Shown here piece after piece: positions 17,890 to 56,062 of a stretch of DNA of 64,000 nt (positions are counted from its first letter, which is position 1; every line of letters starts with the position of its first letter). The notes beneath the pieces were generated by a model, which saw only the letters and a program-made list of their open reading frames with translations, was not told the origin of the DNA and ran no database searches. Made by a program: the position numbers and the translations under genes. The DNA is from Alphaproteobacteria bacterium. GTDB taxonomy: Bacteria > Pseudomonadota > Alphaproteobacteria > SP197. The stretch covers positions 1,120,001 to 1,184,000 of the forward strand of contig OZ219917.1 of NCBI GenBank assembly GCA_964291415.2, in the 5' to 3' direction.

Positions 17890-19229
17890 CGATGGAACTC
17901 GTCATCAGGGGCGATCTCGTGACGCCAGCGGGCGTGGTGGACAGCGGCTGGGCCGGTGTGGTCGACGGTGTCATCGCCGCGACCGGTTCGAACGAGCCCC
18001 CTGCTGCCCGGCAGACGGTCGATCACAGGGGAAAGCTGGTGTTTCCCGGGGTCGTGGACGGTCAGACCCATGCCGGCTCGATCGCCGGGTTCGACGGCCT
18101 CGAGGATCTGACCAGGAGCGCCGCCGCGGGTGGCGTGACGACCATTGTCGACATGCCCTTCGACGAGCCCGATCCGGTGTGGAGCCGCGATCTGCTCGAC
18201 GCCAAGATTGCCACCGCCAACCGTGTGGCCCACGTCGATGTGGCGCTCTACGGATCCGTGAAGAAGGTGGTCGAGACCGACGAGATCGCCCGCCTTGCCG
18301 ACGGCGGCGTGTGCGCATTCAAGATGTCGACCTATGAATCCAATCCTCACCGGTTTCCGCGGATTCCCCATGACCAGATGGCGCGGGCCTTTGCGGCCAT
18401 TGCCGACACCGGCCTCACGGTGGCGGTTCACAACGAAGACCAGGAAGTGGTCGATCACGCCATCGGCGCATTCAGGGACGAAGGGCGCCGGGACGCCGGT
18501 TGCCATCATCCGAGCCGGCCGCCGCTCGCGGAACTCCTCGCCAACGCCGTCATTCTGGAACTCGGGGCCGCGACAGGCGCCCGGGCCCACATCGTCCATT
18601 CCTCGCTGGCCCGCGGATTCGACATGGCGCGCCAGTACCGGGATCAGGGCTACCAGGTGACGGCGGAGACCTGCATCCACTATCTGACGTTCGACGAGGC
18701 GGACGTGCTGGCCATGGGTGCGAGGGGCAAGGTCAACCCGCCCATCAGGCCCGACGAGAAGGAGGCAATCTGGCTGCGCGTGGCAGCGGGAGACGCGGCA
18801 TTCGTCTCCTCCGATCACTGTTCATGGCCTCTCGAACGCAAGTCCGATGACGATATCTTCGCGGCGGCGCCGGGTGCCCCCGGGGTCGAGTGCCTCCTCG
18901 CCGTCATGTTGAGCGAGGCGGAAAAGCGCGGCCATGATCCCGGTCTTGTCGCCTCCATGCTGTGCGAGGGCCCGGCCCGGCACTTCGGCCTGTGGCCGGC
19001 GAAAGGCGCCATCCGTGAAGGGGCCGACGCCGATTTCGCTGTCATCGAGCGCGGTGACTGCCGCCACGACGATGCCTCACTTCACTGCCGGTTGGCACCC
19101 TGGACGCCCTATCACGGCAGGGAGCTTTCGGGACGGGTCTGCGAGACCTGGTTGCGCGGTCACAGGATTTTCGATGGACGGAATGTCCTTTCCCGTCCCG
19201 GGGACGGCAGGTTCGTCAGGCCCGTCTGA
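17886..19229 (+). CDS. Cyclic amidohydrolase (allantoinase/hydantoinase family)
   Basis: AAAGGVTTIVDMP, VHNED, AETCIHYL, KVNPPIR, SSDH. Confidence 0.88.
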   Translation: MTMELVIRGDLVTPAGVVDSGWAGVVDGVIAATGSNEPPAARQTVDHRGKLVFPGVVDGQTHAGSIAGFDGLEDLTRSAAAGGVTTIVDMPFDEPDPVWSRDLLDAKIATANRVAHVDVALYGSVKKVVETDEIARLADGGVCAFKMSTYESNPHRFPRIPHDQMARAFAAIADTGLTVAVHNEDQEVVDHAIGAFRDEGRRDAGCHHPSRPPLAELLANAVILELGAATGARAHIVHSSLARGFDMARQYRDQGYQVTAETCIHYLTFDEADVLAMGARGKVNPPIRPDEKEAIWLRVAAGDAAFVSSDHCSWPLERKSDDDIFAAAPGAPGVECLLAVMLSEAEKRGHDPGLVASMLCEGPARHFGLWPAKGAIREGADADFAVIERGDCRHDDASLHCRLAPWTPYHGRELSGRVCETWLRGHRIFDGRNVLSRPGDGRFVRPV

Positions 19230-41696: not shown

Positions 41697-42696
41697 CGAC
41701 CGGGTGAATCACGACATCCTGATGGGACTGGTGGCCAAGTGCGTGGCCGACAGATGCCTGCTCAGGCTCATCTGCGGCTTCCTGACCGCGGGGGTTCTGG
41801 AAGGCGGTGGTCGGTCCAAGCACCAAGAAGACGCCGCAGGGTGGTCCATTCTCGCCCTTGCTGTCGAATTGGATGCTCGACGTTCTGGACAAGGAACCGG
41901 AGAAGCGTGGCCACGCTTCGTGTGCTACGCCGACAGCTGCAGCATCTACGTGGGGTCCCGGCCGGCGTGCGAGCGGGTCATGGCAAGCGTGACGAGGTTC
42001 CTCGCCCGGCGGCTGAAGCTGAAGGTCAATGCAGATAAGAGCGTGGTAGATTGCCCGTCGGCGCGGGCCTTCCTGGGCTTCAGCTTTACCGCTGCGCGGG
42101 CAACGAAGCGGCGGATCGCGCCGCAGGCGCTCGCCCGGGTCAAGACACGGGTCCGGGAGATGACGCGCTGCACCAAGAGTGCCAGCCCTGTTCGTCTTGT
42201 CGCGGAACTCTCCCGCTACCTCATCGGGTGGCGGGGCTACTTCGGCTTCTGCGAGACTCCCTCGGTGCTGCGCCGCCTCGACCAATGGGTCCGACGGAGG
42301 CTCCGCGCCATCATCTGCGACTGTGGAAGCGCGGACGCACCCGCTATGCGGCGCTGCGCCGCCATGGGCCGTGGGCACTGCCGGCGGTTTGAGCCGCCAG
42401 GTCCTTGCCCACGGCCCATGGCGAATCAGCGCCAGCCCTGCGCGCTGCTACGCGCTGCCCCACGCCTCTTTCACCAAGCTTGGCCTCGCGACCCTTGCGA
42501 GCCATGCTACCGCGCAAATCCATCGAACCGCCGTGTACGGACCCGTACGCACGGTGGTGTGGGAGGGGCGGAGCCGCGAGGCTCTCCCCTATCCCGATTT
42601 GCATCGTCCCTCGGACCGGCCGCCGAGCATTGTTCCAGCCGCGATCTACAGTCATCCTCCCGCTTTGCTGCGCTCCCTACGATTGAGGCCCGCACG

Positions 42697-44061
42697 ATGC
42701 TTCTCCCTCCGTTTCTCCGCGTCCTCGCGGCATCCTGCGTCCTGCTTCTGATCGCTCCAATCTGGAGTGTGGCCGACGACGTCCTTCCATCCCCCGCCGT
42801 CATCGAGGCCGATGCGCGGGCGCTTGCAGAGGCGGGTCGCTTCGAGGAGGCGTTAGGCCTCTTGCGGACCTTGGTTGGAGGCGGGACGGTGGAGGCTGGG
42901 ACGCTGTTTCTCTACGGCATGGCGGCGACCGGTGCCGCGCAGCGGCCCGGTCTCGCCGAGGCGGACCGCGATGCCCTGCTGGACGAGGCCATCGCCGCCT
43001 TCCACACGTTGCTGGTGGGACGGCCGGGCCTCGTGCGTGTGCGCCTGGAGCTGGCCCGCGCCTTCTTCCTGAAACGTGAGGACGGGCTGGCCCGACGGCA
43101 CTTTGAGCACGTACTGGCAGGCGACGTGCCCGAGGCGGTCAAGGAGAACGTGGGCCTTTTTCTCGCCGAAATCCGCGCGCGCGATCGCTGGAGCTTCAAT
43201 TTGGGTGTCGCGGTGGCACCCGACAGCAATATCAGCGGCGGTTCGGACGAACGCATCATCTACATCTACGGCTTGCCCTTCGAGCGGGATACCGAGGAGC
43301 TGACCACGTCCGGCATTGGCCTTTCCTTCTGGGGCGGCGCGGAGTACCAAGTGCCGGTCTCCGACCGGATTCGCGTCCGTGCCGGCGCGCAGGCCTCGCG
43401 GCGGGAGTACGAGCGTTCCGTCTTCGACCAGCACTTCGTCGCTCTCCATCTCGGCCCGCGCTGGCTTCTCGGCGAGGCGACGGACGCGAGCCTGCTGGCG
43501 AGCGGCCGGCAGAACTGGTCCGGCACCGCGCCCAACTACCGCGAGCTGGGCGCTCGCCTGGAAGTGACCCACCGGTTGAGTCCTCGCCTGACCACTTCTG
43601 CCCGGGCATCCTGGCACGACCGACGCTACCGCACCCGGACCCACCTGGATGGCCCGGTCTGGGATGCAACCCTGCGCGGTGCGTGGGTTGTCACGCCGAC
43701 GGTGCGGGCCGAGTTGTCCGGCGGCTATGCGCAGCAGCGGCCGAAGTTCCGGCGCGAGCGCCACCGCGGCCGGTGGCTCGGCACAGGCGTCAGCGTGGCC
43801 CTGCCGCTGGGCTTCACGGTCGGCGGCAGTGCGGAGGTGCGCTGGACCGACTACGAGCCGGGCTGGTTCCCCTTCGTCGCCGATGGTGGCCCGCGTGAGG
43901 ACCGTACCCGGTCCTACAGGCTCAGCACCCACAATCGGGCCTTCACGCTCATCGGCTTCAGCCCGGAGTTGGCACTTGTCCACGAGACCCGCGACAGCAA
44001 CGCCCAGCTCCACGACTACCGCCGCACGTCGGGCGAACTGCGCTTCGTCCAGCAGTTCTGA
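42697..44061 (+). CDS. Slam/DUF560 outer-membrane protein (type XI secretion)
   Basis: Signal peptide, TPR VRVRLELARAFF, APDSNI barrel start, GFSP, SN...Y.R and terminal F. Confidence 0.82.
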   Translation: MLLPPFLRVLAASCVLLLIAPIWSVADDVLPSPAVIEADARALAEAGRFEEALGLLRTLVGGGTVEAGTLFLYGMAATGAAQRPGLAEADRDALLDEAIAAFHTLLVGRPGLVRVRLELARAFFLKREDGLARRHFEHVLAGDVPEAVKENVGLFLAEIRARDRWSFNLGVAVAPDSNISGGSDERIIYIYGLPFERDTEELTTSGIGLSFWGGAEYQVPVSDRIRVRAGAQASRREYERSVFDQHFVALHLGPRWLLGEATDASLLASGRQNWSGTAPNYRELGARLEVTHRLSPRLTTSARASWHDRRYRTRTHLDGPVWDATLRGAWVVTPTVRAELSGGYAQQRPKFRRERHRGRWLGTGVSVALPLGFTVGGSAEVRWTDYEPGWFPFVADGGPREDRTRSYRLSTHNRAFTLIGFSPELALVHETRDSNAQLHDYRRTSGELRFVQQF

Positions 44062-44452
44062 ACGAACGGACCTCCGCCTCTTCCGCCGTTCTTGGTGCGA
44101 CCTGCCGGGACCGAGAGCCGGGCATCGCCCTCTTCCACCCGCAGAGGCTGGGCGAGCGTCACCGCAGCATTCCCTTTGCGCCGGGGCCGGTCGGGTGGAG
44201 TGCATGGCTGGTCCCAAGCGGCGACACGCCGGCGATGATGCCGTCCTCTGCGCAGGTGTGGACGACGCCGACTGCCGCCCAGCCGAGCGTGCCGTCGCGT
44301 AGAGCATTGGAGAGGCCCAGAGCCCAGTGTGCCGGTTGACGCACGGCCGACTTGGTCACCAGCAGGCGAACGCCTGGCCCACCCCTTGACATTCACATGG
44401 CGAAAATCCGAAGTATCCGTGGAACCCAAACCAAGGGTGTGAAGGAATTCAA

Positions 44453-45646
44453 ATGCCGCGGCGGCTGGATCTTGCAGCGCTTCTTTCGGGATGTGCCGAC
44501 GACTCGTTCGACGACGGCATTCGCATCGACAGCGATCTCGAACCTCTCGCCGGTCCCGGCGGCGCGATCAAGCCGGCGGTTTACGAATACGGAGCCTATC
44601 AGTTCGACCGGCGGTGGGCCTCTCCCGACGACGGCGAGCCGACACAGGTCATCGTCATCGACAACGTGCCGTCGCAGGCGAACAGGCTCGAGGAAGCCCT
44701 GAGACGGAGCCGCGAGTCGACGTCGATTCCGGAGTTCGTTCTCGACCTCTCGACGCTGCCCCGTCTTCCCGTGCACCTGCCCCGGTCCCTGTCGAGTCTC
44801 CAGTTCCCGCACCGCAATGCGGACGCCTATCTTCGCGACTCGCAACTGGAAGGAGAGGATTTTCTCAAGACCGAGGTCGGCCGGGCGATCTTCGGCGCAA
44901 CGGCCGAGACCTGCGGGCCCTTGATGTCATGGTTCCCGCAGGCGCTGCTCTATGGGTTCTGGCAGTCCCACCTCGGCAAGAAGCGGCAAAACACCAGGCA
45001 CGCACGCGCGTGGGTGTCCGAGATTGTCGGCTGGCGGCCCGCCGCGACCCAGACAAGGATGCTCGGGCTGAAGGGAGACGCTCTCAATCTCAACACCAAC
45101 GACGTCGTGACCTCCAATCCTGACGATCGCACGGCATGGGAGGTCGGCAAGGGCGCGAGAATTGCGGGTGCGAAGAGTGAGAGGCTCTCCGAGATCGGTC
45201 ACGGGCAGGTGGCCGTCTCGGGAGCCGACGCCCGACCGGCGGCGGTCTCCTTCGCGCGCGTGACGCAGCGCGCGACGGTGTCCTTTGCCCAGCTCCGGCG
45301 CGTCAGTCTGGGGGGCGAGTCCGGCGGGGCGGACGCGGCCGCTCGGGCTTTGCTGGTGGCGCTCGGGCTGCACGCCCACCAGCTCGCTTTCGGCAGGGGA
45401 TTCGCCCTGCGTTCCGGCGCCGAGCTTCGACCCCGGTCGACCACCGCGACGTGGCTTGGTGCTACGGGCGACGAGACGATCGATCTCGGTGGGGCCGAGA
45501 CGACGCTGGCACTTCTCGAAGCGGCCAGGGAACATGCCGCATCCCGGGAGGTGCCGCTCGACGGTTGGGGATTTCCCGCGACAGTGCTGACTCCGAAGAA
45601 GAACCTCAGCGCGGCGATTCGCTCGACCTGGCCCGAACTCGACTGA
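44453..45646 (+). CDS. csb1: Type I-G Cas7 (Csb1)
   Basis: IKPAVY, IDNVPSQANRLE, PHRNADAY, LLYGFWQS, GHGQV, LRSGAEL. Confidence 0.9.
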   Translation: MPRRLDLAALLSGCADDSFDDGIRIDSDLEPLAGPGGAIKPAVYEYGAYQFDRRWASPDDGEPTQVIVIDNVPSQANRLEEALRRSRESTSIPEFVLDLSTLPRLPVHLPRSLSSLQFPHRNADAYLRDSQLEGEDFLKTEVGRAIFGATAETCGPLMSWFPQALLYGFWQSHLGKKRQNTRHARAWVSEIVGWRPAATQTRMLGLKGDALNLNTNDVVTSNPDDRTAWEVGKGARIAGAKSERLSEIGHGQVAVSGADARPAAVSFARVTQRATVSFAQLRRVSLGGESGGADAAARALLVALGLHAHQLAFGRGFALRSGAELRPRSTTATWLGATGDETIDLGGAETTLALLEAAREHAASREVPLDGWGFPATVLTPKKNLSAAIRSTWPELD

Positions 45647-47046
45647 TGCTGGCGATCAGCGTCGAGTTCCTGCACGGGACCTTCCGCGGCGACCCGGACG
45701 GCACCGCGCTCACCGGAGGGCTGACCCGGGGAGAGTGGCCACCGTCGCCGGCACGGCTCTTCGCCGCCCTGGTGGCGGCCGACGGGACCCGGCAGGCGTC
45801 ACGGATGACGGACGGTCACGAACTGATCTGGCTCGAAGAACTTCCCGCACCGGCGATTCACGCCCAGCGCGAACCCTGCCATCAGAAGCTCCGTCCGCGC
45901 TTTGTCGCAGCGCAGCGCAGTCGTCCCGCCAAGGCCGCGTACCAGGAGTATCCCGCACGAGAGGCAGCCCTCCAGCGACCGGGCGTGCGGGTCGCCCTGC
46001 GCAACCCTCTCGTGGTGTACCGGTGGAATGTGGAACCGCCGGACGAAAGGACCTTCAAGTCGCTGATCCATCGCGCCGCGCGCGTGGGATACCTGGGCAC
46101 ATCCGACTCCCCCGTCCGCATCCGCGTGGCGACCGAGATGCCGCGCGATGCCGAGAGCGAGGTCTGCGTTCCGGATCCTGAAGGCAACCTGCGCATCCGC
46201 GTCCCTCGGCCGGGCGATGTCGCCGTGCTGGACCGCATGTTCGACGTCTGGCAGGAGCGGGGGGCATCGGTGACCCGCTCCCAGTTCCCTCAACTTCTCC
46301 ATTGGCAGACGTACCGGTCGCCTGGCGGTTGCGATGCTGTGGAGAGCGGAGACGTGGTGGCCTGGCTGCGCCTGAGCCCGGCCCTCACCGGCAGGCGGAT
46401 TTCCTCGTTGACCGCGCTCTTCAAGGCCGCCCTTCTCGACCGTCATCAGCGCATGTACGGCGATCCGCCCGCCGTGCTGCACGGTCATGGATTCAAGGAA
46501 AGGGGATACGATCTCGCCCGCTACCTGGCGCTGCCGGACATCGGCATGCCGCGCTCGCGCGGCCGCATTCATGGTCTCGCCCTGTGGCTGCCGCCGGGAG
46601 TCGACCGCGAACAGCAACGCAAGGCCCGCGATGCGGCGTTTGCCATCGACGTGCTCGTCGGTCGAGGCATCGAAGTATCCGTGGAACCGCGCGGGGATGA
46701 AGAACGCCTCTGGGCCGCCAATCCGCAGCGCTGGCGTGGACCGTCGTCGACCTGGGTCACGGCGTTCCCCGTGATCCACGAAAGGAGGGGCGTTCCCGGC
46801 CTCCCGGAAGCGGCCCGATGGTGCCGTCACGCCGGCCTGCCCGATCCGGTTGCCTTCCAGTCGTCGCGCGCGCCGCTTCTTCCCGGCGCGATCGATCTTG
46901 CGCCGTCGGAAGTCAACCGGCCCGAGCGGCCCGCGCTCCCGTATTCTCACGCCGAGTTCCGCTTCGCGGAGCCCGTGAGCGGGCCAGTCGTTGTCGGCGC
47001 CGGGCGGCAGCGCGGTTTCGGCCTCTGCGTGCCGATTGATGGCTGA
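45646..47046 (+). CDS. csb2: Type I-G Cas5/6 fusion (Csb2)
   Basis: EWPPSPARLFAALVA, YLGTSDS, GPVVVGAGRQRGFGLC glycine-rich loop. Confidence 0.9.
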   Translation: MLAISVEFLHGTFRGDPDGTALTGGLTRGEWPPSPARLFAALVAADGTRQASRMTDGHELIWLEELPAPAIHAQREPCHQKLRPRFVAAQRSRPAKAAYQEYPAREAALQRPGVRVALRNPLVVYRWNVEPPDERTFKSLIHRAARVGYLGTSDSPVRIRVATEMPRDAESEVCVPDPEGNLRIRVPRPGDVAVLDRMFDVWQERGASVTRSQFPQLLHWQTYRSPGGCDAVESGDVVAWLRLSPALTGRRISSLTALFKAALLDRHQRMYGDPPAVLHGHGFKERGYDLARYLALPDIGMPRSRGRIHGLALWLPPGVDREQQRKARDAAFAIDVLVGRGIEVSVEPRGDEERLWAANPQRWRGPSSTWVTAFPVIHERRGVPGLPEAARWCRHAGLPDPVAFQSSRAPLLPGAIDLAPSEVNRPERPALPYSHAEFRFAEPVSGPVVVGAGRQRGFGLCVPIDG

Positions 47047-49866
47047 CACAACGCCCACATCCGGCAGCGGAGTACGGTCGGTCACCGCGCAGCGGATTCC
47101 TCCGTCGCCCACATTCACCGAATTCTACCGAGCCATCAACGGGCGCGATCCGTTCCCCTGGCAGGCGCGCCTTGCCGACTGCGTCGTGGAGAGCGAGCGG
47201 TGGCCGCCGGTGATCGGCATACCGACCGGTCTCGGCAAGACGGCCTGCCTCGATATCGCGGTGTGGTGGCTGTCGACCCAGGCGGACCGCGTGCCGGCGC
47301 GTCGCAGTGCGCCAACGCGAGTCTGGTGGGTCGTTAACCGGCACCTCCTCGTGGACTCGACGGCCGGGCACGCGAGAGACATGGCACGCGCGCTCCACGA
47401 TCCTGTCGGCGCGGGGATGGATGCCGCCGGGTGCGATGTTGCCAGGCGCGTCGCTGAACGGCTTCGTTCACTGTGGGTCGATCCCGCCGCGCCCCGCTGG
47501 ACGTGATCAGCCTTCGGGGCGGCATCGCCTCGCGCGCTCCCACGGACCCGGCGCGGCCGACCGTCATCCTGTGCACGCTGGCAACGTACGGCTCTCGCCT
47601 TCTGTTCCGGGGTTACGGGTCCAGTCGGCCGTCCGTCGACGCCGCGATGGCCGGTACCGACAGCCTGGTGCTGCTGGACGAGGCGCATCCCGGGGTACAC
47701 CTGAGAACACTGATCCCTGCCCTTGCCGCCTGCAGTCCCGCAGCGCGGGACCTGCTCGGTGCGAACCGGGCCCGGCCAACGGTTGTTGCGTTGACGGCCA
47801 CCGGGGATGTCGCGCAAGACGACAGGTTCGAACTGGATGGCGAAGACGAGACGCACCCGGAGGTCCGCCGACGACTGGACGCTGTGAAACCGCTCGACGT
47901 GGATGTGGTTGACGGAAGGACGGCAAAACGCCTTGCCGGGGCGGCTGTAGCGCTCGTGCAGCGGGCGCCCGCGCTGGCTGCAAGTCTCGTGTTCGCCAAC
48001 ACCCCGACGACGGCGCGCGAGACGCTCGATCGCTTGCGCCATGCGCTTCCGGATGCGGAGATCCTGCTTCTCACGGGACTCGCGCGCGAACGCGAGGCAG
48101 CGCGGCTTCGTGCCCGCGTGCTTGATCCGGAACACGGGATGGCCACGGCGCGTCCCGCCGACGCACCGCGCCGGCATCACCTGATCGTCGTGGCGACGCA
48201 GACCCTGGAAGCGGGAGCCGACATCGACGCTGAATACCTCGTCACGGAGGGGTGCAGCGTGCGTGCGCTCACGCAACGGCTGGGCCGCCTGAATCGACTC
48301 GGGCGGTTCCCGCATGCGCGTGCAACCTACGTTCATGTCCTGCCATCCGGGTCTCGCAGGGCAAGCGCATCCGACACGGACTTCGACGACTGGCCGGCGT
48401 ACGGACGGGAGCCAGCCATTGTGCTCGAGCGGTTGCAGAAGTCGCATGCCGGCGGCGGAGCCGGAACCATCGGACTCTCTCCACGGTCCATGGCCTCGGT
48501 ACTGGGACCACCGCTCGACCATCCAGGCCGTGCGCCGGAGGTCCTTCCCGGCCTGTTGTGGGAATGGACGAAAACGACAGAGCCTCCCGAGGACGAGGCA
48601 CCGGTGGAACCCTATTTCGTCGGCATCGCCAGCCCGCGGCTTTCGGTGACCGTGTTCTGGCGTGCGCATGTCCCGGATTCCGGCAGGCGGTTGTGGCCGC
48701 GAGCCACGGACCGCGAAACCATCGAGGTGTCATTCACAAGAGCGCGCGAAGCGCTGAGCGAAGGAGTGATCCGCCGGCTGGCCTCGGACGGCGTCACGGT
48801 AGAGGCAGTGTCCGCAGGCGACCTGCGTCCCGGGGACCGGATCGTCATCGCCAGTGACGCGGGACACATGGACCGGTTCGGGTGGAATCCGGGAGCCTGC
48901 GGCCCCGTCGTTGATGCCTCGCTCGCTGGCTTGGGTCTGCCGCTTGATGCCGTCGCCATCCGGCGCCTGTGCGGCGTGGATATCGGTGGACTCGTAGACA
49001 CCGCCCTGGGGATCACCGCCGACGGTCGCGAAATCGACGAGACGGAACGGTCGGAAGCGATCACGGACATCCTTGCCGCACTCAGGAACGCGCCGGTGCC
49101 GGAGGGATGGCAGGAGGCAGAGTGGACCGGGTTTGTCGGCAGCCTTCGCCCGCAGGTTCTCAGACCTTGCGACGAAGTACCTCGCCTGATGGTCGAACAG
49201 CCGCGTGACGAGACATTGAACGATGAGTTTGACGAACGTTCTTTGTGTCATGTCGCGATCGAACTGGATCAGCATGGTCACACTGTCGGGGCTCGCGCAA
49301 GCAGGGTGGCCGAACGGATTGGCCTGCCCGATAGTTTACGGGAAGTGGTCGAGCATGCCGCGAAACTGCACGACATCGGCAAGGCCGATGCGCGATTTCA
49401 GCGGTGGCTCGACCCGCGGCGCGAGAATGGTCCGCCGCTCGCGAAATCGGACGTTCCAAGTCACCGCTGGGAAAGGATGCGGCTTTCGTCCGGCTGGCCC
49501 ATAGGAGGACGTCACGAGGAGCTCTCCGCTCGGCTGGTGCGTGCATGGTTGGCGTCGACACCCGAGTGGGGCACCCCGCTTCAACGCGACCTGCTGGTGC
49601 ATCTGGTGATCAGCCATCACGGAAAGGGCCGCCCGCTGGTGCCGCCGGCGACCGATGGTACGGCCTGCACCGTGAGCGCCGTCGTGTCAGGAGTATCGGT
49701 GACGGCAAGCGCGGATCTCGCGATGATCGACTGGGAGCAGCCTGGCCGCTTCCGGAAGCTGCAGGCGCAATTTGGGCCGTGGGGACTGTCACTCCTGGAA
49801 GCCATCGTCATCCGGGCCGATCACGCCGTCTTGGCCGGAGTGGATGGAACACCGAAGGACTCCTGA
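47039..49866 (+). pseudogene. cas3: Type I-G Cas3 (helicase + C-terminal HD), one frameshift near 47492-47495
   Basis: PFPWQ, PTGLGKT, DEAH, ATQTLEAGADID, QRLGRLNR, HDIGK..RHE..SHHG. Confidence 0.88.
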
Positions 49867-50762
49867 TGCACACGTTCAACTGCCCAGGGCTTCCCGCATC
49901 TTGGGTCAATGGCTGGCTCGCAGGAATCGGCGCTACGGTGCTCGATCGCCGCATCCGGCTGCATTGGACCGCAGAGGATGCGCCCGTGGCGGTGCTCTCG
50001 TCAGCCGAACTCAACCCAGTCGACGCACTGGTCGAATCCTGGCCTGACGAAGCGTTTCTGTACGACCTGCCGATCGCCAAGGAGTGGGGTGACGCGGGCG
50101 AACTGGGGCGAAACGTGCCGGTTGAACAGTTTGTTGAACGTGCGTGCGCGGCGCGCGGCCACCCGCATGCCTGGACGCTCTCCTCGACCATGACTGACTT
50201 GAGCATCGATCGGAACGGTGAGGTCGCCCATGCCCCGTTCGACCCTCCTGTCCCCAGGGGATTCTCGATTCATGAACGACTGCTCAAGGTGCACAACGAA
50301 GCAACGCCAGTGTCGAGAGGGCTCCTGCAAGACTCCCTTTTGGGTCTGGGAGAACGCGTCAGGGGAAACGGTCTGGGATTCGACTGCACACGGGTGGGTT
50401 CGCTCGCCGACATGTCGGACAAGTGGATCGAACCCGTCGTCGAGTTGCTGGCGTTCTTCGGCCTGGCGGAGTTTCCGCTCCGAGGCTGGGGAGTGGACCG
50501 TCGGCCCAATCACCACCTCAACCCTGACGAGCGGCAGCGCGGGTGGCGGAAGGTCATGGATAGCGAAGAGCGACGATTTGTCTGGCCTGCTTGGCGACAA
50601 CCTCTGGATGCCGCAGGTATCGACGCGCTGCTCGACGTCTGGAAACCCTGGCGCAAAGAATCCTGGCCGCCCCTTGGTGTCCACGTCGCGTGGCAGAGCG
50701 TGCGATACCAGCGCAGGGGTTCGGCGGATCCCACCAGAGCTATCGGAGCGGCGTCGCTTTGA
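49866..50762 (+). CDS. Type I-G large subunit (Csb3/Cas8g-like)
   Basis: GWLAGIG, LGFD, ELLAFFGL, FVWPAW.QPL; translationally coupled to cas3. Confidence 0.75.
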   Translation: MHTFNCPGLPASWVNGWLAGIGATVLDRRIRLHWTAEDAPVAVLSSAELNPVDALVESWPDEAFLYDLPIAKEWGDAGELGRNVPVEQFVERACAARGHPHAWTLSSTMTDLSIDRNGEVAHAPFDPPVPRGFSIHERLLKVHNEATPVSRGLLQDSLLGLGERVRGNGLGFDCTRVGSLADMSDKWIEPVVELLAFFGLAEFPLRGWGVDRRPNHHLNPDERQRGWRKVMDSEERRFVWPAWRQPLDAAGIDALLDVWKPWRKESWPPLGVHVAWQSVRYQRRGSADPTRAIGAASL

Positions 50763-50975
50763 CGCACCAACCCGTCATTCCAGTCTTCGTGAGCGAGCAC
50801 GTCGTCTACTGTCCACGACACAGTGTACGCTGATCCACCGACAATGGCGTCTGGACCGACAACGCTCACACTGCTACAAGGCCAGCATGAGGCATTATGG
50901 TAACCTTCTCGTCATTCCGATGACTGAAGTGGGACGCGGTTGCCCCTAACTGACCGCAATTCGCCGTGAGTGGCA

Positions 50976-51304
50976 GTGTCGCCGGGGTGTCAATCCTGGC
51001 CTTCGTTGAGCGCCTATCAGCAGCTTGAACTGTGATGAGTACGTTCGTTTGTGTCGCTAGGGCTTCGACCCTGGCCTTTATTGAGCGCCGCGGTTGGGCA
51101 GCATGACATGGAGGCACTGCTGAGTGTCGCCGAAGATCGGACTTTGGTCGGGCCAAGCCATACAGCCGCCAGCTTTTGTCGAGCTCCAGCACCGACCTGT
51201 GTCGGGCGGAGTTCAGCCGTGCCACTCCAAGCCAGCGTCGCCTTTGCTGTTGCAAGTTCCCCGGCTGCAAGCGTGTCATCGCCGTACGGCTCGATCACAG
51301 AGCG
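50976..51304 (+). CRISPR. Degenerate type I-G mini-array (2 clear + 3 decayed repeats)
   Basis: 37-bp GTGTCGCCGGGGTGTCAATCCTGGCCTTCGTTGAGCG and GTGTCGCTAGGGCTTCGACCCTGGCCTTTATTGAGCG; GTGTC recurs at 50976, 51051, 51124, 51199, 51273. Confidence 0.78.
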
Positions 51305-51639
51305 CCATCATCGCCACTTCACAAGATGGCTCGTCATGGAGGCCAGCAACATGCGACAGAGCGCCGGGCGCTTCACCTTGATCAGCTTGATCCACTTCAC
51401 GTCCGCGTCCGACAGCGTCCAGGTGTCCTTGAAGGCAGCGCCCACCAATTATGAGCTGATCGGAACAGCGTAGTTGGCCTTGGAATTGAAGAGCGGGACT
51501 TAGTGGATCATGTTGACCGCCGTGCTCCTGTGCCTGATTCTCACCAACAAACTGAATCATAACACAAAAACGGATACGGCGGCACACTCTTCATGCAAGA
51601 TCCGGGCTAGTCGGCTAGAGGCAAGGCTACACTAGCCCT

Positions 51640-53087
51640 GGTTGTGTCCCACCGCGTGGTGTAGGAGTTCTGGCTCCGCTGGAAGTTGTGGGTAACTGGC
51701 CCGCCGCAGCGACCACCACGAGTCAGGCGGCGGGGGGCCAGTTATCCACAACGGCGGCCATCGCGGTTCCGGTTAAGGTTGGGTTTGCACAATCCACCTG
51801 ACCGGAGGAGTACCACGATGACCACCAACGACATGATGACCCTGCAGGCCCTGTTGGAGAAGAGCTCTGACAGCGATCTTCTGCGCGAGATGATCGAGTT
51901 CGCGGCCGGGCGCCTGATGGCCCTGGAAGTGGAGGGTCTGACGGGCGCCGCGCATGGCGAGCGCACACCGGAGCGGATCAACCAGAGAAACGGCTACCGC
52001 GACCGGTTGTGGGAGACCCGCGCGGGCACAGTGGAGCTGAAGATCCCGAAGTTGAGAAAGGGGAGCTACTTCCCCGGCTTCCTGGAGCCGCGGCGGACGG
52101 CGGAGAAGGCTCTGACGGCGGTGATCCAGGAGGCCTACATCCAGGGCGTGTCGACGCGATCGGTTGATGACCTGGTGCAGGCCATGGGCATGAGCGGCAT
52201 CTCCAAGAGCCAGGTCTCCCGGCTGTGCGGCGAGATCGACGACAAGATCGGCGGCTTCCTTGAGCGGCCCCTGGAGGGCGACTGGCCCTACCTGTGGCTG
52301 GATGCCACCTATGTGAAGGTCCGCGAGGCCGGGCGCATCGTCTCGGTCGCGGTGACCATCGCCGTGGCGGTCAACGACCAGGGCCGCCGCGAGGTCCTGG
52401 GCATGGCGGTCGGCGCCTCGGAGGCCGAGACCTTCTGGACCGACTTCCTGCGTTCCTTGGCGCGCCGCGGGCTCCGGGGTGTCAAGCTGGTGATCTCCGA
52501 CGACCACAAGGGTCTCAAGGCCGCGGTCACCCGCATCCTCGGCGCCACCTGGCAACGATGCCGCGTGCACTTCACCCGCAACCTCTTGGCCCATGCCGGC
52601 AAGCAGGGCCGGGGCGTCGTCTCGGCCTTCATCGCCACCGCCTTCGCCCAGAACAACGCCGCGGACGCCAAGTCCCAGTGGCGCCTCATCGCCGACCAGC
52701 TCCGGCCCAAGGTGCCGAAGCTCGCCGCGCTCATGGACGAGGCCGAAGAGGATGTGCTGGCCTACATGACCTTCCCCAGGGAGCACCGTCAGAAGTTGCA
52801 CTCCACGAATCCCCTCGAACGTCTCAACGCCGAGATCAAGCGCCGCACCAACGTCGTCGGCATCTTCCCCAACGAGAACGCCATCACCCGCCTGGTCGGC
52901 GCGATCCTTCTCGAGCAGAACGACGAATGGAGTGTCGGACGCCGATACATGACGCTGGAATCGATCGCTCCCGTGAGCGACAATATCAATCTCATGCTGC
53001 CCGCCGTGGCAGCCTGAGCATCCCGGCCCAACACGCCGGATACCGAGCTGGACGCCAGGCTCTTACACCACCCGGCGGGACACGATC
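51640..53087 (+). mobile_element. IS256-family insertion sequence
   Basis: Imperfect terminal IRs (GGTTGTGTCCCACCGCGTGGTGTAGGAG / rc GATCGTGTCCCGCCGGGTGGTGTAAGAG); 8-bp TSD CTAGCCCT at 51632 and 53088. Confidence 0.95.
51818..53017 (+). CDS. IS256 transposase
   Basis: [41 protein letters not shown]. Confidence 0.95.
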
Positions 53088-53373
53088 CTAGCCCTAGAAA
53101 GATAAAGCAGATACCATTGACCTAACGTATGGGACTACAGCGTTGTCGAAGGCGGGTCGAGAGGGGAATGACAGCAATCACTCGCAGAGACGTGGAATCG
53201 CAAGCAGCCACTGATGTTGGACAGGCTGAACTGGGCGCATCGAGCACGTTGAAGCTTCGTTGTAACGCTGTTACGAACGCTTCGCCGCTCCGCAAAGCAG
53301 GATCGCCAACAAAGTTGTAGCGATCTCGCCCGACGATGCACGCTGCAGCCCAATCGCACGAAAGAAACTCCCA

Positions 53374-54021
53374 ATGTCCGAAATCGCCTCAGCCTTCGAT
53401 CTTTCAAGAAGCATTTTGGATAAGCTACGATCCGGGTTGGCAATTGTCGCCAGACTTGAAGAGCAAGAGCACCATAGGCTCTTGGACTGGGCTCGTGCTC
53501 CCCGAGCAATGGGGTTGTACGGAGATGCACGCAGCCTGGTGTCAGAAACGGGTGTAGCCGAAGAATACGCCGATCAAGTGCGAATGGCTGTTGTAATGAT
53601 GGTAGGCTCAATTGGTGGCTCATCGATCGCATCCCAAGACTTCATAGATGCTGGCCTCAAGAGTAGTGCGTTAACCGAGAAGGAGGTTCGCGGCATCAAG
53701 AAGTTTGCGGACCTGATCATCGAATGCCGTTCGGAGATCAAGAAAGAAAAGGACATAGCGCAACTACAAAATAGCGCACTACCGACGTTGATCGAATTTG
53801 AACTTACATTGGATGCGCGAGTACAAGTTTCCGACGGAACCATACTGTATGCCGTTCCGGTGGTCGTCGCATATGTCGATACCGACTCTGAGAATCAAGT
53901 GTTGTGGTTTCAGATGAACGAAGAGCGAGCTCGCGAAGTTAGAGACAAACTAAGTGCTACTCTTGATCATTTGGATATAGTGAAAAAATGGTTGCATACG
54001 TCCAAGAGTCAAGGCTTCTAG
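53374..54021 (+). CDS. Hypothetical protein with COMM-domain-like C-terminus
   Basis: Helical N-terminus; LPTL.....LD.R...VPVVV...D...WFQM..helix pattern; low-GC ORF. Confidence 0.55.
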   Translation: MSEIASAFDLSRSILDKLRSGLAIVARLEEQEHHRLLDWARAPRAMGLYGDARSLVSETGVAEEYADQVRMAVVMMVGSIGGSSIASQDFIDAGLKSSALTEKEVRGIKKFADLIIECRSEIKKEKDIAQLQNSALPTLIEFELTLDARVQVSDGTILYAVPVVVAYVDTDSENQVLWFQMNEERAREVRDKLSATLDHLDIVKKWLHTSKSQGF

Positions 54022-54320
54022 TGGAGCCCAACATGTTCGAGATGCCATCATTCGACGTGTGGGCAATTGCGTACACGGCACTGGGCGCTGTCATATTATG
54101 GACCCGATTGGGGCGAAAGAGGATAAGGGTGTTTGCCCTTTCTCGGTTGCTCGAGGGAATTGGCCTTAGGGACAAGGGTCAGATGTTGGCTGAGTTTCTT
54201 GTTTTTGTTGGTTTGGGAATTGTGGTGGGTGTCTCGATTGTACAACCCACTAACCCAGAACAAGCCCTCGCGGCCGGAATGGGTTGGACCGGGCTTGTGG
54301 CTCAACCTACGTCACGATAG
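54021..54320 (+). CDS. Small membrane protein (about 3 TM)
   Basis: Hydrophobic segments, PTNPEQALAAGMGW; GTG overlaps upstream stop. Confidence 0.65.
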   Translation: MEPNMFEMPSFDVWAIAYTALGAVILWTRLGRKRIRVFALSRLLEGIGLRDKGQMLAEFLVFVGLGIVVGVSIVQPTNPEQALAAGMGWTGLVAQPTSR

Positions 54321-54372
54321 GTTGGTTGGAAGGAAGAAGACTACAACACGACTATAAGGATGTGGTGAATTA

Positions 54373-55062
54373 ATGCAAGAGAAGATGTACAATCGGATTG
54401 CGACAGGTTGCTTGATTGTGGGTGTGGGTGTGGTGTTGGTGTCTGAAGCGAATGAAGTGTATTCGTGGATGACGGTGGGATTGGCGATAGCCATTACTAT
54501 TGTAGCCGCTGCGGCATATTTTGCATTTCATATGACGGCGGGGCGCAAAGAAGAAACGCCGAATCGAATTGAAGGCGATGCCGAGCCAGTTGAGGTGGCA
54601 GTCACATCAGCAGATGTGGAAAAATACAGAGAAGTGGAATACACTGCCCCTCCAGCCCGTGTCGATACACAGCCTGAATTCACAATACTAGTGGAGAAGT
54701 TGAGAGAGGTCGAGTATCCATTTGCACCTACAGTGTCGGGAGCGTTGCATTGGGCAAAACTGGGTGAATTGGAAGAAACAAGTCAGCTCCTGGGTGTATG
54801 GACTGGCAATCTTGAAGAAATGCCCAAGCAAATCCAAAAGCACAAGTTAATGGATGAAGCGGCGAGGGCAATAGGGGCACAAGGGATTGTAGTGCTGGGA
54901 GACGGCTCGTACTACAGCATCGCAGGCATTGCGGGAATGCGGACTTCGTGGGAAAAGTGGCATCGCCATAAGCGCGGCGTGGCGAAGAGGGCAGGTTGGT
55001 TAGAAGTATTGACTGGAGAGGGACTGTCCGAAGAAGGACAGCGTATGAAAACGTTGCAGTAG
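54373..55062 (+). CDS. Hypothetical protein with two N-terminal TM helices
   Basis: 229-aa low-GC ORF with hydrophobic N-terminus. Confidence 0.55.
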   Translation: MQEKMYNRIATGCLIVGVGVVLVSEANEVYSWMTVGLAIAITIVAAAAYFAFHMTAGRKEETPNRIEGDAEPVEVAVTSADVEKYREVEYTAPPARVDTQPEFTILVEKLREVEYPFAPTVSGALHWAKLGELEETSQLLGVWTGNLEEMPKQIQKHKLMDEAARAIGAQGIVVLGDGSYYSIAGIAGMRTSWEKWHRHKRGVAKRAGWLEVLTGEGLSEEGQRMKTLQ

Positions 55063-55702
55063 CATTCGCGGACGACCAGCAACTGCTGGAAGTTGGTATT
55101 GGAAGTGAGGCTGCGGAGCGATTGACTTTCTGCGTACGGTTATGATTGCGCTTGGTCTTGCGTCCAAATGAAGTCGTCTGTGCTGGCGTGGAACGCCACC
55201 TCATGTATGCACAGGTCAGCCGCTAAGTGCAAACGGTCTACGGCGCAAGATAAGACGGACGTGTGGCAACGTTCTTGACGTCGAGTGTCAGCGGAACAGC
55301 CGGTTGCGGCGTTCTAGCGCGACTAGCCTGACGCACCTTTCGAGAGGCGTTTTTTATGACGGACACGACGGGATCCTGGAGGCAGACCTCGAAGCCGCTT
55401 CTGTGGTTGCCAAGAAGAACCTACATTGGTTCACTCAACTCTAACAAGACATGCCAGTGACTTTACTCAGTGGAAGTTCCTGTTCGAGAATCTGGTTGCC
55501 GGTGACACGTTCACACATCCGGATCCTTCCATGATGCGCACCGCCGAGCTTCTTATCAACAAATACTGGGAAACAGTGGCCGGACAAGAGGGCAGAACGC
55601 ATTGCATTGCACGCGGGAGCTATTGGCTCTGCGTGCCAATGTTACCCATGTGTGCAATCGCCACGAGTAACTTATTCCTGGTGTACGGTCGATTCACATA
55701 GT

Positions 55703-55877
55703 CTACTGAGCACATAGCTGGGCAATGGCCGTGCCAGTCCGTTCGGCAGCAGCTGCCACTTCTCTGTCCAGAACATGCGCATAGCGAAGCGTCATGGATA
55801 AACGGCTGTGACCCAGGAGTTTCGCTACGATCGGCAGCGGAACGCCACTCATGACTGCCTGGGAGGCAAATGTGTGC
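55703..55877 (-). pseudogene. C-terminal piece of the interrupted tyrosine integrase
   Basis: HTFASQAVMSGVPLPIVAKLLGHSRLSMTLRYAH continues the HDLR motif at 59314. Confidence 0.9.
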
Positions 55878-56062
55878 CTCTTACTCCGGAACCGGAATAA
55901 GCGTCATTATTGCCGGATCCGTCTTATTCCGGCTCGTCTGGCATGAACATCTGAGATTGGTGTGACTTCAGTATGTTGTGCAGGGTCATGATGGTTGAAG
56001 TTCCGGAGTAATCCGGTGGTCTTCTCGTGCTGGCAATGTCGTCAGCGCAATGGAGAAGGCCG

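Follow-up and report, generated by a model that had tools for sequence, protein, structure and literature searches.

In the type I-G system of Thioalkalivibrio sulfidiphilus, Csb2 processes crRNA; by analogy, Csb2 is predicted to bind a 7-bp repeat hairpin and cut 4 nt past it, giving an 8-nt 5' handle. CRISPR-associated transposons (CASTs) combine an effector without acquisition genes with a few hard-wired guides and divergent repeats. CASTs are mentioned in PMC10120712; PMC6737040, PMC7145637, and PMC4869251 describe degenerate repeats and cas clusters of atypical content as frequent, and PMC9638904 reports a TTN PAM for other I-G systems.

Here, we analyzed a 64-kb stretch of alphaproteobacterial DNA (the window), in which a sequence-only reading had proposed a cryptic type I-G array of five differing repeats. 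Two interpretations had been offered: fixed guides kept under structural selection, or an old decaying array. On balance, the array is probably an old decaying type I-G CRISPR stub, drifting at about the neutral rate, and not a new system. Features of the locus are listed in Table 1.

Table 1. Coordinates and properties of the effector genes, array stub, and neighboring DNA in the window
Feature	Coordinates	Strand	Description
csb1 / cas7g	44453..45646	+	397 aa, intact; TIGR02570 60.9 bits (cut-off 38)
csb2 (Cas5-Cas6 fusion)	45646..47046	+	466 aa, intact; TIGR02165 202 bits (cut-off 45)
cas3g helicase-nuclease	47473..49866	+	797 aa, intact; TIGR02621 419.8 bits (cut-off 400)
"Cas3-extension family" protein	49869..50762	+	297 aa, intact; NF049934 60.6 bits (cut-off 65, just missed)
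Broken cas4 stub	50759..50880	+	First ~37 codons; frame-breaking indels, in-frame stop
Leader remnant	50900..50975	+	Repeat-proximal ~75 nt; aligns with the leader of L009 and with the final 22 nt of that of G002
Repeat R1	50976..51012	+	Close to consensus; hairpin of 7 bp; canonical tail CTTC-GTTGAGCG (hyphen, predicted cut); MFE -13.4 kcal/mol
Spacer S1	51013..51050	+	38 nt; no match beyond chance
Repeat R2	51051..51087	+	7-bp hairpin retained; altered tail CTTT-ATTGAGCG
Spacer S2	51088..51123	+	36 nt
Repeat R3	51124..51160	+	GTGTC and 7-bp hairpin retained; 3' tail gone
Spacer S3	51161..51198	+	38 nt
Repeat R4	51199..51235	+	Only 5' half recognizable, one inserted base; no canonical hairpin; CCAAGCCA as in R3
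IS110-family transposase gene 3'-part-like fragment	51250..51348	+	Contains unit 5
Non-coding stretch	51349..51530		Conserved with G019 about as well as the remnant
IS256-family insertion sequence	51640..53087	+	Transposase NF033543 344 bits; flanked by 8-bp duplication CTAGCCCT

Effector genes are intact

Neither frameshifts nor stops interrupt the ~6.3 kb of the four effector genes, and the same four genes are found in relatives with active-looking arrays. The csb1 product also matches Pfam PF09617 (E 4e-35) and aligns with its counterparts full-length and collinearly at 66-83% amino acid identity, while the cas3g product has HD and helicase domain matches and the Cas3-extension gene occupies the same place in every related locus that extends that far. 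Among the scanned open reading frames (ORFs), NCBIfam and Pfam family models gave no match to a Cas8g/Csx17 large subunit. Csb2 is predicted to be the repeat-hairpin binder and pre-crRNA nuclease, a role taken from PMC9638904; its alignment-invariant histidines (279, 281, 378, 395, and 435) and C-terminal glycine-rich loop are retained, and the histidines count in favor of fixed guides.

Substitutions on the terminal branch leading to the window were counted at codons on which the other six crown loci all agree, giving 16 nonsynonymous and 47 synonymous changes versus 44 and 222 in relatives (p = 0.11, not significant). Random changes are expected at a nonsynonymous-to-synonymous ratio of roughly 3:1. 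As the observed 16:47 is far from this ratio, the effector still appears to be under selection, and an intact operon under purifying selection, in a genome with no other matching repeat, again favors fixed guides. Against them, residues unique to the window on otherwise invariant columns number 26 of 148, compared with 31 of 499 in relatives (p = 9e-5), an excess in the alignments that hints at relaxed constraint.

Four repeats derive from a canonical type I-G array

GTGTC starts at positions 50976, 51051, 51124, 51199, and 51273, and re-reading all five starts in the sequence reproduced the reported periods of 75, 73, 75, and 74. The plus strand of the window holds 81 copies of the motif, or roughly one every 790 nt, and chance would be very unlikely to space them so regularly. 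Behind the same operon, related loci have canonical arrays with between 4 and 47 copies of a 37-nt repeat, whose family consensus is GTGTCGCCGG(G/A)G-6 nt-C(T/C)CCGGCCTTCGTTGAGCG, including 12 nt after the stem. Periods in these arrays are 71-78, against 75, 73, and 75 across R1 to R4, and the spacers, which re-measured at the 38, 36, and 38 nt first read, are of family-typical length. Judged by alignment, the window's repeats share their ancestry with the 37-nt repeat found behind the csb1-csb2-cas3g-cas3ext-cas4-cas1-cas2 operon of the relatives; the CRISPR identity and type I-G (Csb2) context had thus been recognized correctly, as the canonical arrays of the relatives have the same repeat.

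The whole 4.44-Mb genome was scored without gaps against the family consensus at its 31 non-loop positions. R1 (28/31) gave the top score in the genome and R2 (25/31) the second, and only these two reached 25 or more among 8.88 million genome positions; outside the stub, the genome holds no matching repeat. In this ungapped scoring, the significance of R3 (16/31, genome-wide tail 0.006) was only weak, as was that of R4 (15/31, tail 0.016). Compared with the inferred repeat of the lineage, R1 differs at 1 of the 31 non-loop positions and R2 at 4.

The three stems given in the sequence-only reading (GCCGGGG/TCCTGGC, GCTAGGG/CCCTGGC, and GCCGAAG/CTTTGGT) proved correct, each being 7 bp long with a 6-nt loop that differs from the others. 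In the family hairpin alignment, 145 of 147 cells are paired, 4 of the 7 pairs have changed on both sides, and the covariation score exceeded that of 500/500 shuffles. The hairpin of R2 with its T-rich tail is also terminator-like.

All 7 pairs of the R3 stem are standard. Agreement of this repeat with the consensus is 14/19 in the head versus 2/12 in the tail (Fisher p = 0.003), and by its sequence R3 looks like a terminal repeat. Its break falls at the hairpin base, near the Csb2 cut site reported in PMC9638904. Read by eye and allowing for one inserted base, the 5' half of R4 agrees with the repeats of relatives at 16 of 17 positions. The alignment of units 3 and 4 reached z = 3.55, a level attained by 0 of 300 shuffles, and the common end claimed for them, CCAAGCCA, is present in both. 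R3 and R4 were counted as repeats on the basis of register, the R3 hairpin, and the R4 5' half. Pairwise alignment found no significant similarity between S1, S2, and S3; S3, S4, and the sequence that follows unit 5 were also considered as diverged duplicates of one another, an idea rejected because the spacers alone lack similarity. As aligned here, the stub comprises four repeats (R1 to R4), three complete spacers, and the beginning of another.

The expectation that standard finders would miss the array was borne out: TRF and a k-mer chain finder reported nothing, and a pairwise repeat search recovered only R1-R2. A look-up of RNA runs containing the array stretch returned none, and contigs not recorded as RNA confirm the assembly across it.

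Unit 5 lies inside an IS110-like fragment

The proposed count of five repeats holds for R1 to R4 and fails for unit 5 (51273-51309), which was rejected as a CRISPR repeat, since it scores below 14/31 against the consensus and sits inside an IS110-like fragment. GAGCG, described as the end of repeats 1, 2, and 5, is present in all three, but the copy in unit 5 is 5 nt off register. Window positions 51250-51334 match an ORF of a same-genus genome, G006, at 76% nucleotide identity (E 1e-8 per genome); this ORF carries the Pfam domains DEDD_Tnp_IS110 and Transposase_20. The protein alignment gave z = 9.3 against 200 shuffles, and positions 51278-51348 also match G010. No Pfam or NCBIfam match to the DEDD transposase domains (PF01548 and PF02371) was found in window ORFs across 51250-51348, and as similarity occurs only downstream of these domains, the sequence is a fragment and not an IS110 element. 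Whether the IS110 similarity reaches upstream into R4 was also considered; since it is weak there in protein alignment and absent in nucleotide alignment, R4 was retained as a repeat.

Beyond the fragment, consecutive bins of ~50 nt in the non-coding stretch are 82%, 75%, 71%, and 58% identical to the congeneric genome G019, with mismatches lacking 3-periodicity. The ORF at 51276-51587 on the minus strand was rejected as a gene, as it has no family match, no homolog, and no coding GC3 pattern. The IS256-family element, whose ends were set from other genomic copies, does not adjoin the array.

Acquisition genes have been lost

Models for Cas1 (PF01867) and Cas2 (PF09827) gave 0 matches in the whole genome, which is rated 100% complete, in agreement with the claimed absence of acquisition genes. 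In 11 of 14 distinct related loci, full cas4 and cas1 genes lie between cas3ext and the leader. The window's cas4 stub aligns by tblastn with residues 1-37 of G002 Cas4 at 50% identity, versus 68-82% in 11 intact relatives, and the 115-nt alignment contains insertions of 2 nt and 1 nt plus a stop. Calibrated against the operon, its excess divergence is estimated at ~2%, with an error of ~4% for 115 nt; an excess this small means that the deletion may be recent and the acquisition-free time short. The leader remnant lies immediately 5' of R1, and the operon is collinear with those of relatives. No sigma-70-like promoter was found in 50600-51700.

Two related loci have also been altered in this region. 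L011 fuses Cas4 residues 1-90 to Cas1 residues 271-338, and its effector genes are full-length as far as its sequence extends, so that adaptation loss beside a full-length effector recurs there, a further point for fixed guides. L014 has Cas4 pieces only, no leader, and 5 repeats with all loops different; its sequence covers only most of cas3ext. L011 and L014 show the same process as the window.

A congener without cas genes retains an orthologous remnant

G019, a genome of the same genus in which neither the Csb2 protein nor the family models for Csb2 and Csb1 found a match, carries a syntenic orthologous remnant from R2 to approximately window position 51530 at ~73% identity. Window and G019 agree at 27/37, 26/37, and 27/37 positions in R2, R3, and R4; at 30/36, 22/38, and 24/31 in S2, S3, and S4; at 30/37 in unit 5; and at 29/40, 41/50, 33/44, and 35/49 in bins from 51310 to 51500. 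Identity in the repeats (70-73%) is therefore no higher than in the spacers (58-83%) or the downstream junk (71-82%), which argues against fixed guides. Third codon positions in flanking blocks are 64% and 72% identical, and the S2 ortholog of G019 contains an extra 24-nt duplication.

The R2 ortholog also scores 25/31 against the consensus. Each lineage has 4 non-loop changes of its own in R2, which has thus changed equally fast in the window and in the cas-less genome, and two of the window-specific changes flank the predicted cut site to give CTTT-ATTG; both observations weigh against fixed guides. In their favor, standard stem pairs number 21/21 in R1 to R3 of the window versus 12/14 in G019, where the only 2 unpaired cells of the family's 147 are found, but this difference is not significant (Fisher p = 0.15). 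If the 9 stem changes are placed at random, all pairs survive with p = 0.0013 (transition share 2/3; measured 0.69). Retention of pairing is thus non-random (p ~0.001), but most of the changes are common to the cas-less ortholog and so date from a period in which the array was perhaps still in use. Overall, the claim of fixed guides under structural selection was left unsupported, given repeat identity no higher than that of junk, 4 versus 4 changes in R2, and a pairing difference at p = 0.15; the old decaying array is the better supported of the two interpretations, as the repeats are no better conserved with G019 than the spacers or junk.

Spacers match no target beyond chance

The reading by eye had seen no spacer match in the window, and full-length ungapped matches in 36000-56000 were not above those of shuffles. 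Searches of the spacers against the host genome, plasmids, and phages revealed no target beyond chance. The best matches in the host's own genome were exact 12-15-mers (E >= 0.085), and those in phage and plasmid collections all had E >= 0.4; S1 had 0 exact 24-mer matches in IMG/VR. No target was found in 33 family genomes, where the real matches were only the G019 ortholog, G002 repeats, and IS110-related stretches. Among 401 class genomes, 30 besides G000 gave matches at E <= 0.05 (best, 4.5e-4 per genome), which is about chance. The window and L014 have no spacers in common.

Seed-anchored matches were sought with five spacer-length stretches (S1 to S4 and 51310-51347). Across the three stretches between genes of the locus, the longest measured 8 nt, and over 20 kb on both strands it measured 10 nt (in cas3g); since both are at chance level, they provide no support for pairing with a promoter.

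Discussion

The comparisons give the stub the following history. The distal end of the array was first truncated beside an IS110-like element, leaving the fragment taken for a fifth repeat, and R3 and R4 were already degenerate in the common ancestor with the G019 species, which later lost its cas operon, leader, R1, and S1. In the lineage of the window, a deletion of ~1.9 kb took cas1, cas2, and the greater part of cas4, and with these genes gone, no new unit can be added. After the split, the remnant appears to have drifted at an approximately neutral rate in both lineages, and the retained hairpins would mostly be inherited from the array's period of use. On the T. sulfidiphilus model, only R1-S1-R2 and, less well, R2-S2-R3 would retain the parts for making crRNA. 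These leader-proximal units could still provide a residual one- or two-guide function for the intact effector; the sequence itself calls for no such function.

A possible, though less favored, explanation is a fixed-guide system, in which the intact I-G effector uses hard-wired S1 and perhaps S2 crRNAs cut by Csb2 from R1-R2-R3. Selection would then act on the R1 and R2 hairpins and handles, with a host site or a repeatedly encountered mobile element as target. Exactly the parts for two crRNAs survive (R1 whole, R2 with hairpin and near-canonical handle, and R3 with GTGTC and hairpin), but the spacer searches returned no target. Extending this to the clade, we would only tentatively suggest that these I-G loci repeatedly and independently lose acquisition (the window, L011, and L014), with effector genes full-length in the window and L011, and that the window effector has been domesticated as a nuclease or repressor with one or two hard-wired guides; R1-S1-R2-S2-R3 would be its feed, and selection would act only on those hairpins and handles.

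A regulatory CreR/CreA-like mini-array, in which a spacer pairs partially with a promoter of the locus so that cas genes or a toxin come under repression by the effector, is improbable. Degenerate repeats beside cas genes, where acquisition is impossible, fit such elements as described in PMC10120712, 10.1101/2023.03.10.532045, and PMC8501985. However, the longest intergenic seed match falls short of the at least 10 bp in promoters asked for in the survey of PMC10120712, and the element occupies the site of the relatives' true arrays, behind the leader and not among the cas genes. Least credible of all is an artefact, either chance GTGTC periodicity in GC-rich DNA or a piece of a protein-coding gene: unit 5 is indeed an IS110-like fragment, long ORFs overlap the region, and a sixth GTGTC lies two periods on at 51424 (missing in the G019 ortholog), but R1 and R2 match a canonical-array repeat as no other site in the genome does, which refutes this idea for R1 to R3, and the overlapping ORFs lack family matches, a coding GC3 pattern, and homologs.

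The stub is probably a fairly ordinary CRISPR relic beside intact effector genes. It illustrates that an array can decay until all of its repeats differ, and so escape finders, yet look as if kept by structural selection, since transition-biased mutation wears hairpins down only slowly, and that an adjoining IS fragment can mimic an extra repeat. The ortholog in a cas-less relative is a rare internal neutral control for claims of selection on repeats. Should the minority reading of fixed guides be true, type I-G would join the CRISPR systems that persist without adaptation, and R1 to R4 would be a small natural variant set for Csb2 recognition.

Comparison with known systems

Unlike CASTs, the window has Cas3g with an HD nuclease domain, and no Tn7-like genes were noticed in a general family scan of its ORFs. 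The locus resembles CreA/CreR, as described in PMC10120712, in having divergent repeats around fixed spacers beside cas genes, but differs in lacking a seed-anchored promoter match in the locus and in that the element is the array itself behind its leader.

As in degenerate or orphan arrays, repeat identity drops away from the leader, with R3 short of its 3' part only, and as in decaying arrays, the adaptation genes are gone while other cas genes are present. Unusually for such arrays, decay is so advanced that all repeats differ and finders fail, yet the effector genes remain whole, and an ortholog of the stub persists in a congeneric genome without cas genes.

The locus differs from T. sulfidiphilus I-G in its gene order, csb1-csb2-cas3g-cas3ext, in having a "Cas3-extension" protein in place of a Cas8g/Csx17 match among the scanned ORFs, and in that Cas4 and Cas1 of the relatives are separate genes. 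As in that system, according to PMC9638904, it has Csb1, Csb2, and Cas3g and a repeat of ~36-37 nt with a 7-bp stem, and the 12 nt after the stem in the family consensus fit the cut reported there (stem plus 4 nt, then an 8-nt 5' handle).

Periodic units and their repeat family

The + strand of the 64-kb window has 81 occurrences of GTGTC, five of which fall within 50976-51310, at periods of 75, 73, 75, and 74 nt. Given the overall count, four successive intervals that deviate from 74 nt by no more than 1 to 2 nt are far more than chance would give. The sequence-only reading had described these units as an array of five diverged repeats that standard finders would likely miss; direct counting bore out its periods, and its stems, loops, and spacer lengths were all correct on recheck. 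Tandem Repeats Finder gave no report at the units, a whole-genome k-mer chain search returned only protein-coding tandem repeats, all located elsewhere, and a repeat-pair search recovered units 1 and 2 as the sole pair (79% identity across 39 nt), as that reading had expected of finders. A look for RNA runs covering the stretch turned up none; contigs of the one sequencing run that does cover it agree with the assembly over 51065-51668.

A genome of the same genus (G002) carries an operon with 74% nucleotide identity to that of the window, followed by cas4, cas1, cas2, a leader, and a canonical 38-repeat array. A search of genome and metagenome contigs with Csb2, the predicted repeat-hairpin binder and pre-crRNA nuclease, and with the Cas3-extension protein yielded 18 further loci, of which one (L010) is the G002 locus again. 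Arrays of the related loci have 4 to 47 repeats with a common consensus, which consists of GTGTC, the 7-bp stem GCCGG(G/A)G, a loop of 6 nt that varies, C(T/C)CCGGC, and then CTTCGTTGAGCG. All genome positions on both strands (8.88 million) were scored against this consensus at its 31 non-loop positions, and the scores of the units are listed in the table.

Features of the window, with consensus scores of the repeats and identity to the ortholog in G019, another species of the same genus
Feature	Position	Strand	Consensus score	Identical to G019	Remark
Group II intron domains 1-4	38100-38387	+			
Large serine-recombinase-like ORF	39015-41225	-			excisionase and IS607-like N-terminal matches; between intron pieces
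Maturase fragment	41704-42316	+			TIGR04416 profile positions 138-349; just ahead of domain 5
Group II intron domains 5-6	42526-42598	+			4.1 kb from domains 1-4
csb1/cas7g	44453-45646	as array			upstream of array
csb2	45646-47046	as array			upstream of array
cas3g	47473-49866	as array			upstream of array
'Cas3-extension family' gene	49869-50762	as array			60.6 bits, slightly below 65-bit cut-off
R1	from 50976		28/31		
R2	from 51051		25/31	27/37	
S2				30/36	
R3	51124-51160		16/31	26/37	genome-wide tail 0.006
S3				22/38	
R4	from 51199		15/31	27/37	genome-wide tail 0.016
S4				24/31	
Unit 5	51273-51309		<14/31	30/37	score not significant
Following segment	51310-51350			29/40	
Following segment	51351-51400			41/50	
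Following segment	51401-51450			33/44	
Following segment	51451-51500			35/49	
IS256-family element	51640-53087				

In an alignment of 21 repeat variants from the family, standard pairs fill 145 of 147 stem cells, 4 of the 7 pairs have changed on both sides, and the covariation score exceeds that of all 500 shuffles, so the hairpin is real and conserved in the family. For the type I-G system of T. sulfidiphilus, PMC9638904 describes a 7-bp hairpin that is bound by Csb2 and cut 4 nt past the hairpin, leaving an 8-nt 5' handle. By analogy, the 12 nt after the stem would match this layout, with a predicted cut (slash) at CTTC/GTTGAGCG.

R3 agrees with the consensus at 14 of 19 head positions and 2 of 12 tail positions (p = 0.003), with the break at the hairpin base, and has the look of a classic terminal repeat. 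R4 was kept as a repeat because its 5' half, loop included, is as in the repeats of relatives at 16 of 17 positions with one base inserted (printed sequences read by eye), and because similarity to IS110 stops short of it at the nucleotide level. The loop of R3, ATCGGA, is identical to that of the first repeat of the related locus L014 (1060-1096), the spacers being unrelated; this could be chance or convergence. A contig from another sample of the same study (run X2) aligns at 50975-51013 and carries a near-identical R1-like repeat with different flanks, so other community members have arrays of this repeat family.

The fifth unit lies in an IS110-like gene fragment

Unit 5, counted as a repeat by the sequence-only reading, was rejected on its score and on a coding match. 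In a DNA search of 33 family genomes, window 51250-51333 matched G006 (76% identity, E 1e-8) within an ORF that carries the Pfam domains DEDD_Tnp_IS110 and Transposase_20, and G010 matched an overlapping stretch. Just past those domains, the window frame aligns to the G006 transposase at a score of 79, where shuffles reach 30 ± 5 (z = 9.3), so that 51250-51348 is a fragment of an IS110-like gene and the register of unit 5 a coincidence. The GTGTC of unit 5 is an Arg-Val codon pair in this frame and reads GTGCC in the ortholog. Since family models found no match in window ORFs across 51250-51348, we refer to a fragment and not to an IS110 element.

The terminal inverted repeats of the IS256-family element match each other, and its target duplication is 8 bp long (CTAGCCCT); it starts about 330 nt beyond the last unit and thus is not what truncates the array. 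A copy with 93% identity is located at C2:805861-807208, and the end of contig C5 lies within another. Right after the element, 53100-55100 has lower GC and ORFs without a Pfam match, and looks like foreign DNA. The group II intron upstream of the operon looks disrupted by another mobile element.

Loss of the acquisition genes

Cas1 and Cas2 family models gave zero matches in the genome (4.44 Mb in 5 contigs, 100% complete, 9% contamination). In 11 of 14 distinct related loci, full-length cas4 and cas1 follow the Cas3-extension gene, with cas2 next wherever the contig extends that far. Homology between the window and its relatives continues about 110 nt beyond the Cas3-extension stop and takes in cas4 codons 1 to 37; the stub protein shows 50% identity, against 68 to 82% in intact relatives, and its lesions are a 2-nt insertion, a 1-nt insertion, and an in-frame stop. 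The approximately 75 nt that follow align to the repeat-proximal end of relatives' leaders, best to that of L009. It follows from this junction of cas4 stub and leader end that a single deletion of about 1.9 kb took out the bulk of cas4, cas1 and cas2 in full, and the distal part of the leader. Calibrated against the operon, the excess divergence of the stub is about 2%, with an error of about 4% estimated for 115 nt, so the time without acquisition may be short.

Two related loci lost the adaptation module by other routes. L011 (15121-15885) joins Cas4 residues 1-90 to Cas1 residues 271-338 and retains an intact cas2 and 19 repeats, and L014 lacks a leader and retains of cas4 just the N- and C-terminal pieces; its array (1060-1400) holds five repeats with loops all different and stems and tails uniform, and one spacer in three copies (two identical, one with 2 differences). 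L009 represents a further stage of adaptation loss, with a 2.7-kb insert (15744-18495) separating cas4 from cas1. L023-25 has a 47-repeat array 230 nt past the Cas3-extension gene and no adaptation genes within the 12.7 kb of sequence available; its leader-end repeats are uniform, so these genes may lie elsewhere.

The effector operon

The four effector genes are full-length, in the order of relatives, and without stops, whereas the adjoining 115-nt cas4 stub has two frame-breaking indels and a stop. At codons identical in six other crown loci, the window carries 16 nonsynonymous and 47 synonymous changes, compared to 44 and 222 for those loci pooled (p = 0.11). In a concatenated protein tree, the branch of the window is no longer or shorter than those of relatives, and Csb2 retains the invariant histidines and glycine-rich loop. 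As an average over the terminal branch of the window, the effector is clearly under selection; an excess of window-unique residues on columns invariant in the other 11 loci (26 of 148, versus 31 of 499 in the six closest loci; p = 9e-5) hints at relaxed constraint.

No match to a Cas8g/Csx17-type large subunit was seen in scanned ORFs of window 44453-50762 and of the related loci, in every one of which an approximately 300-aa 'Cas3-extension' protein directly follows cas3g. Csb1 has about 397 aa, and the Cas7 model matches only the first 190 or so residues. Genomes labelled Alphaproteobacteria and Gammaproteobacteria encode Csb2 proteins 74 to 75% identical to that of the window, and a genome labelled Rhodothermales encodes one at 57% (L009-L013); no flanking DNA is common to the G002 locus and the window. 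This spread and the unshared flanks indicate that the operon moves horizontally.

Comparison with a cas-less relative

The same 33-genome search matched window 51081-51350 to G019 (71% identity, E 5e-33), a 98% complete genome in which neither the Csb2 protein nor the family models of Csb2 and Csb1 found a match. The G019 contig is syntenic with the window, matching in the SlipAM gene upstream and in two blocks downstream; at the site of the cas operon, leader, R1, and S1 are 7.5 kb of ORFs without family matches and an HNH endonuclease. This stretch (L038, 2483-9920, on contig C38) holds ORFs of 387, 150, 463, and 174 aa without a Pfam match, plus the HNH-endonuclease ORF, and could represent another defence cassette, exchanged within the same island.

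The alignment runs from R2 to about 51530 with few gaps. G019 has one good repeat (the R2 ortholog, 25/31), followed by orthologs of R3, R4, and the IS110 fragment, so the tail loss of R3, the decay of R4, and the fragment were already present in the common ancestor. Part by part, repeats are kept no better than spacers or junk, and third-codon-position identity of the flanking blocks is 64% (SlipAM) and 72%; the remnant thus evolves at about the neutral rate. R2 differs from the consensus by 6 non-loop changes in each genome, of which 2 are shared, 4 window-specific, and 4 G019-specific, and two of the window-specific changes flank the predicted cut site, giving CTTT/ATTG. The sequence-only reading had proposed a check of spacer conservation in homologous loci; an ortholog was found, but its repeats are not better kept than its spacers.

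That reading had also placed the hairpin under structural selection in one of its two alternatives. In window R1-R3, each of the 21 stem pairs is standard, and the sole two unpaired cells of the family alignment are those of G019. When 9 substitutions were placed at random on a small tree of the three repeats, the probability that all pairs survive was 5e-5 if all rates are equal and 0.0013 if transitions make up 2/3 of the changes, rising to 0.035 if transitions are the sole kind of change; outside the repeats, the alignment of the window with G019 has a measured transition share of 0.69. Most stem changes (the CCCTGGC arm and the A-T pairs of R3) are common to both genomes and hence older than the split, from a period in which the array was possibly still active. 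After the split, just two stem changes are assignable to the window, with pairing kept in both, and G019 has acquired two pair-breaking changes and one double change (21/21 versus 12/14 pairs, p = 0.15). Intrastrand template switching in quasi-palindromes could also yield paired changes. The pairing is thus non-random and the covariation real, and it is evidence of past selection, with selection at present not demonstrable from these counts.

Origin and possible use of the array

We consider the object to be, probably, a type I-G array stub that is drifting at about the neutral rate. Its distal end would have been truncated beside an IS110-like element before the loss of cas4-cas1-cas2 froze the array. 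Of the two interpretations offered by the sequence-only reading, a decaying array is therefore preferred to fixed guides. Continued use by the intact effector of one or two hard-wired guides, drawn from R1-S1-R2-S2-R3, is allowed by the sequence and made plausible by effector integrity, but draws no support from the G019 ortholog, and we hold it to be a possible, though distinctly less probable, account.

Spacers gave no match beyond chance in their own genome, the locus, phage and plasmid collections, 33 family genomes, or 401 class genomes, so the targets sought by the sequence-only reading in host, plasmids, and phages did not emerge; in IMG/VR, where the query was a 24-mer of S1 alone and an exact match was required, there was no match either. 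A CreR/CreA-like regulator is improbable, as the longest seed-anchored spacer match in intergenic stretches of the locus is 8 nt, below the at least 10 bp at which regulatory mini-arrays are called in PMC10120712. A chance artefact is least credible of all, since R1 and R2 are the only positions in the genome to score 25 or more. Degenerate or orphan arrays are well described, as are cas clusters that lack adaptation genes (PMC6737040, PMC7145637, PMC4869251), and the stub is a genuine but ordinary object.
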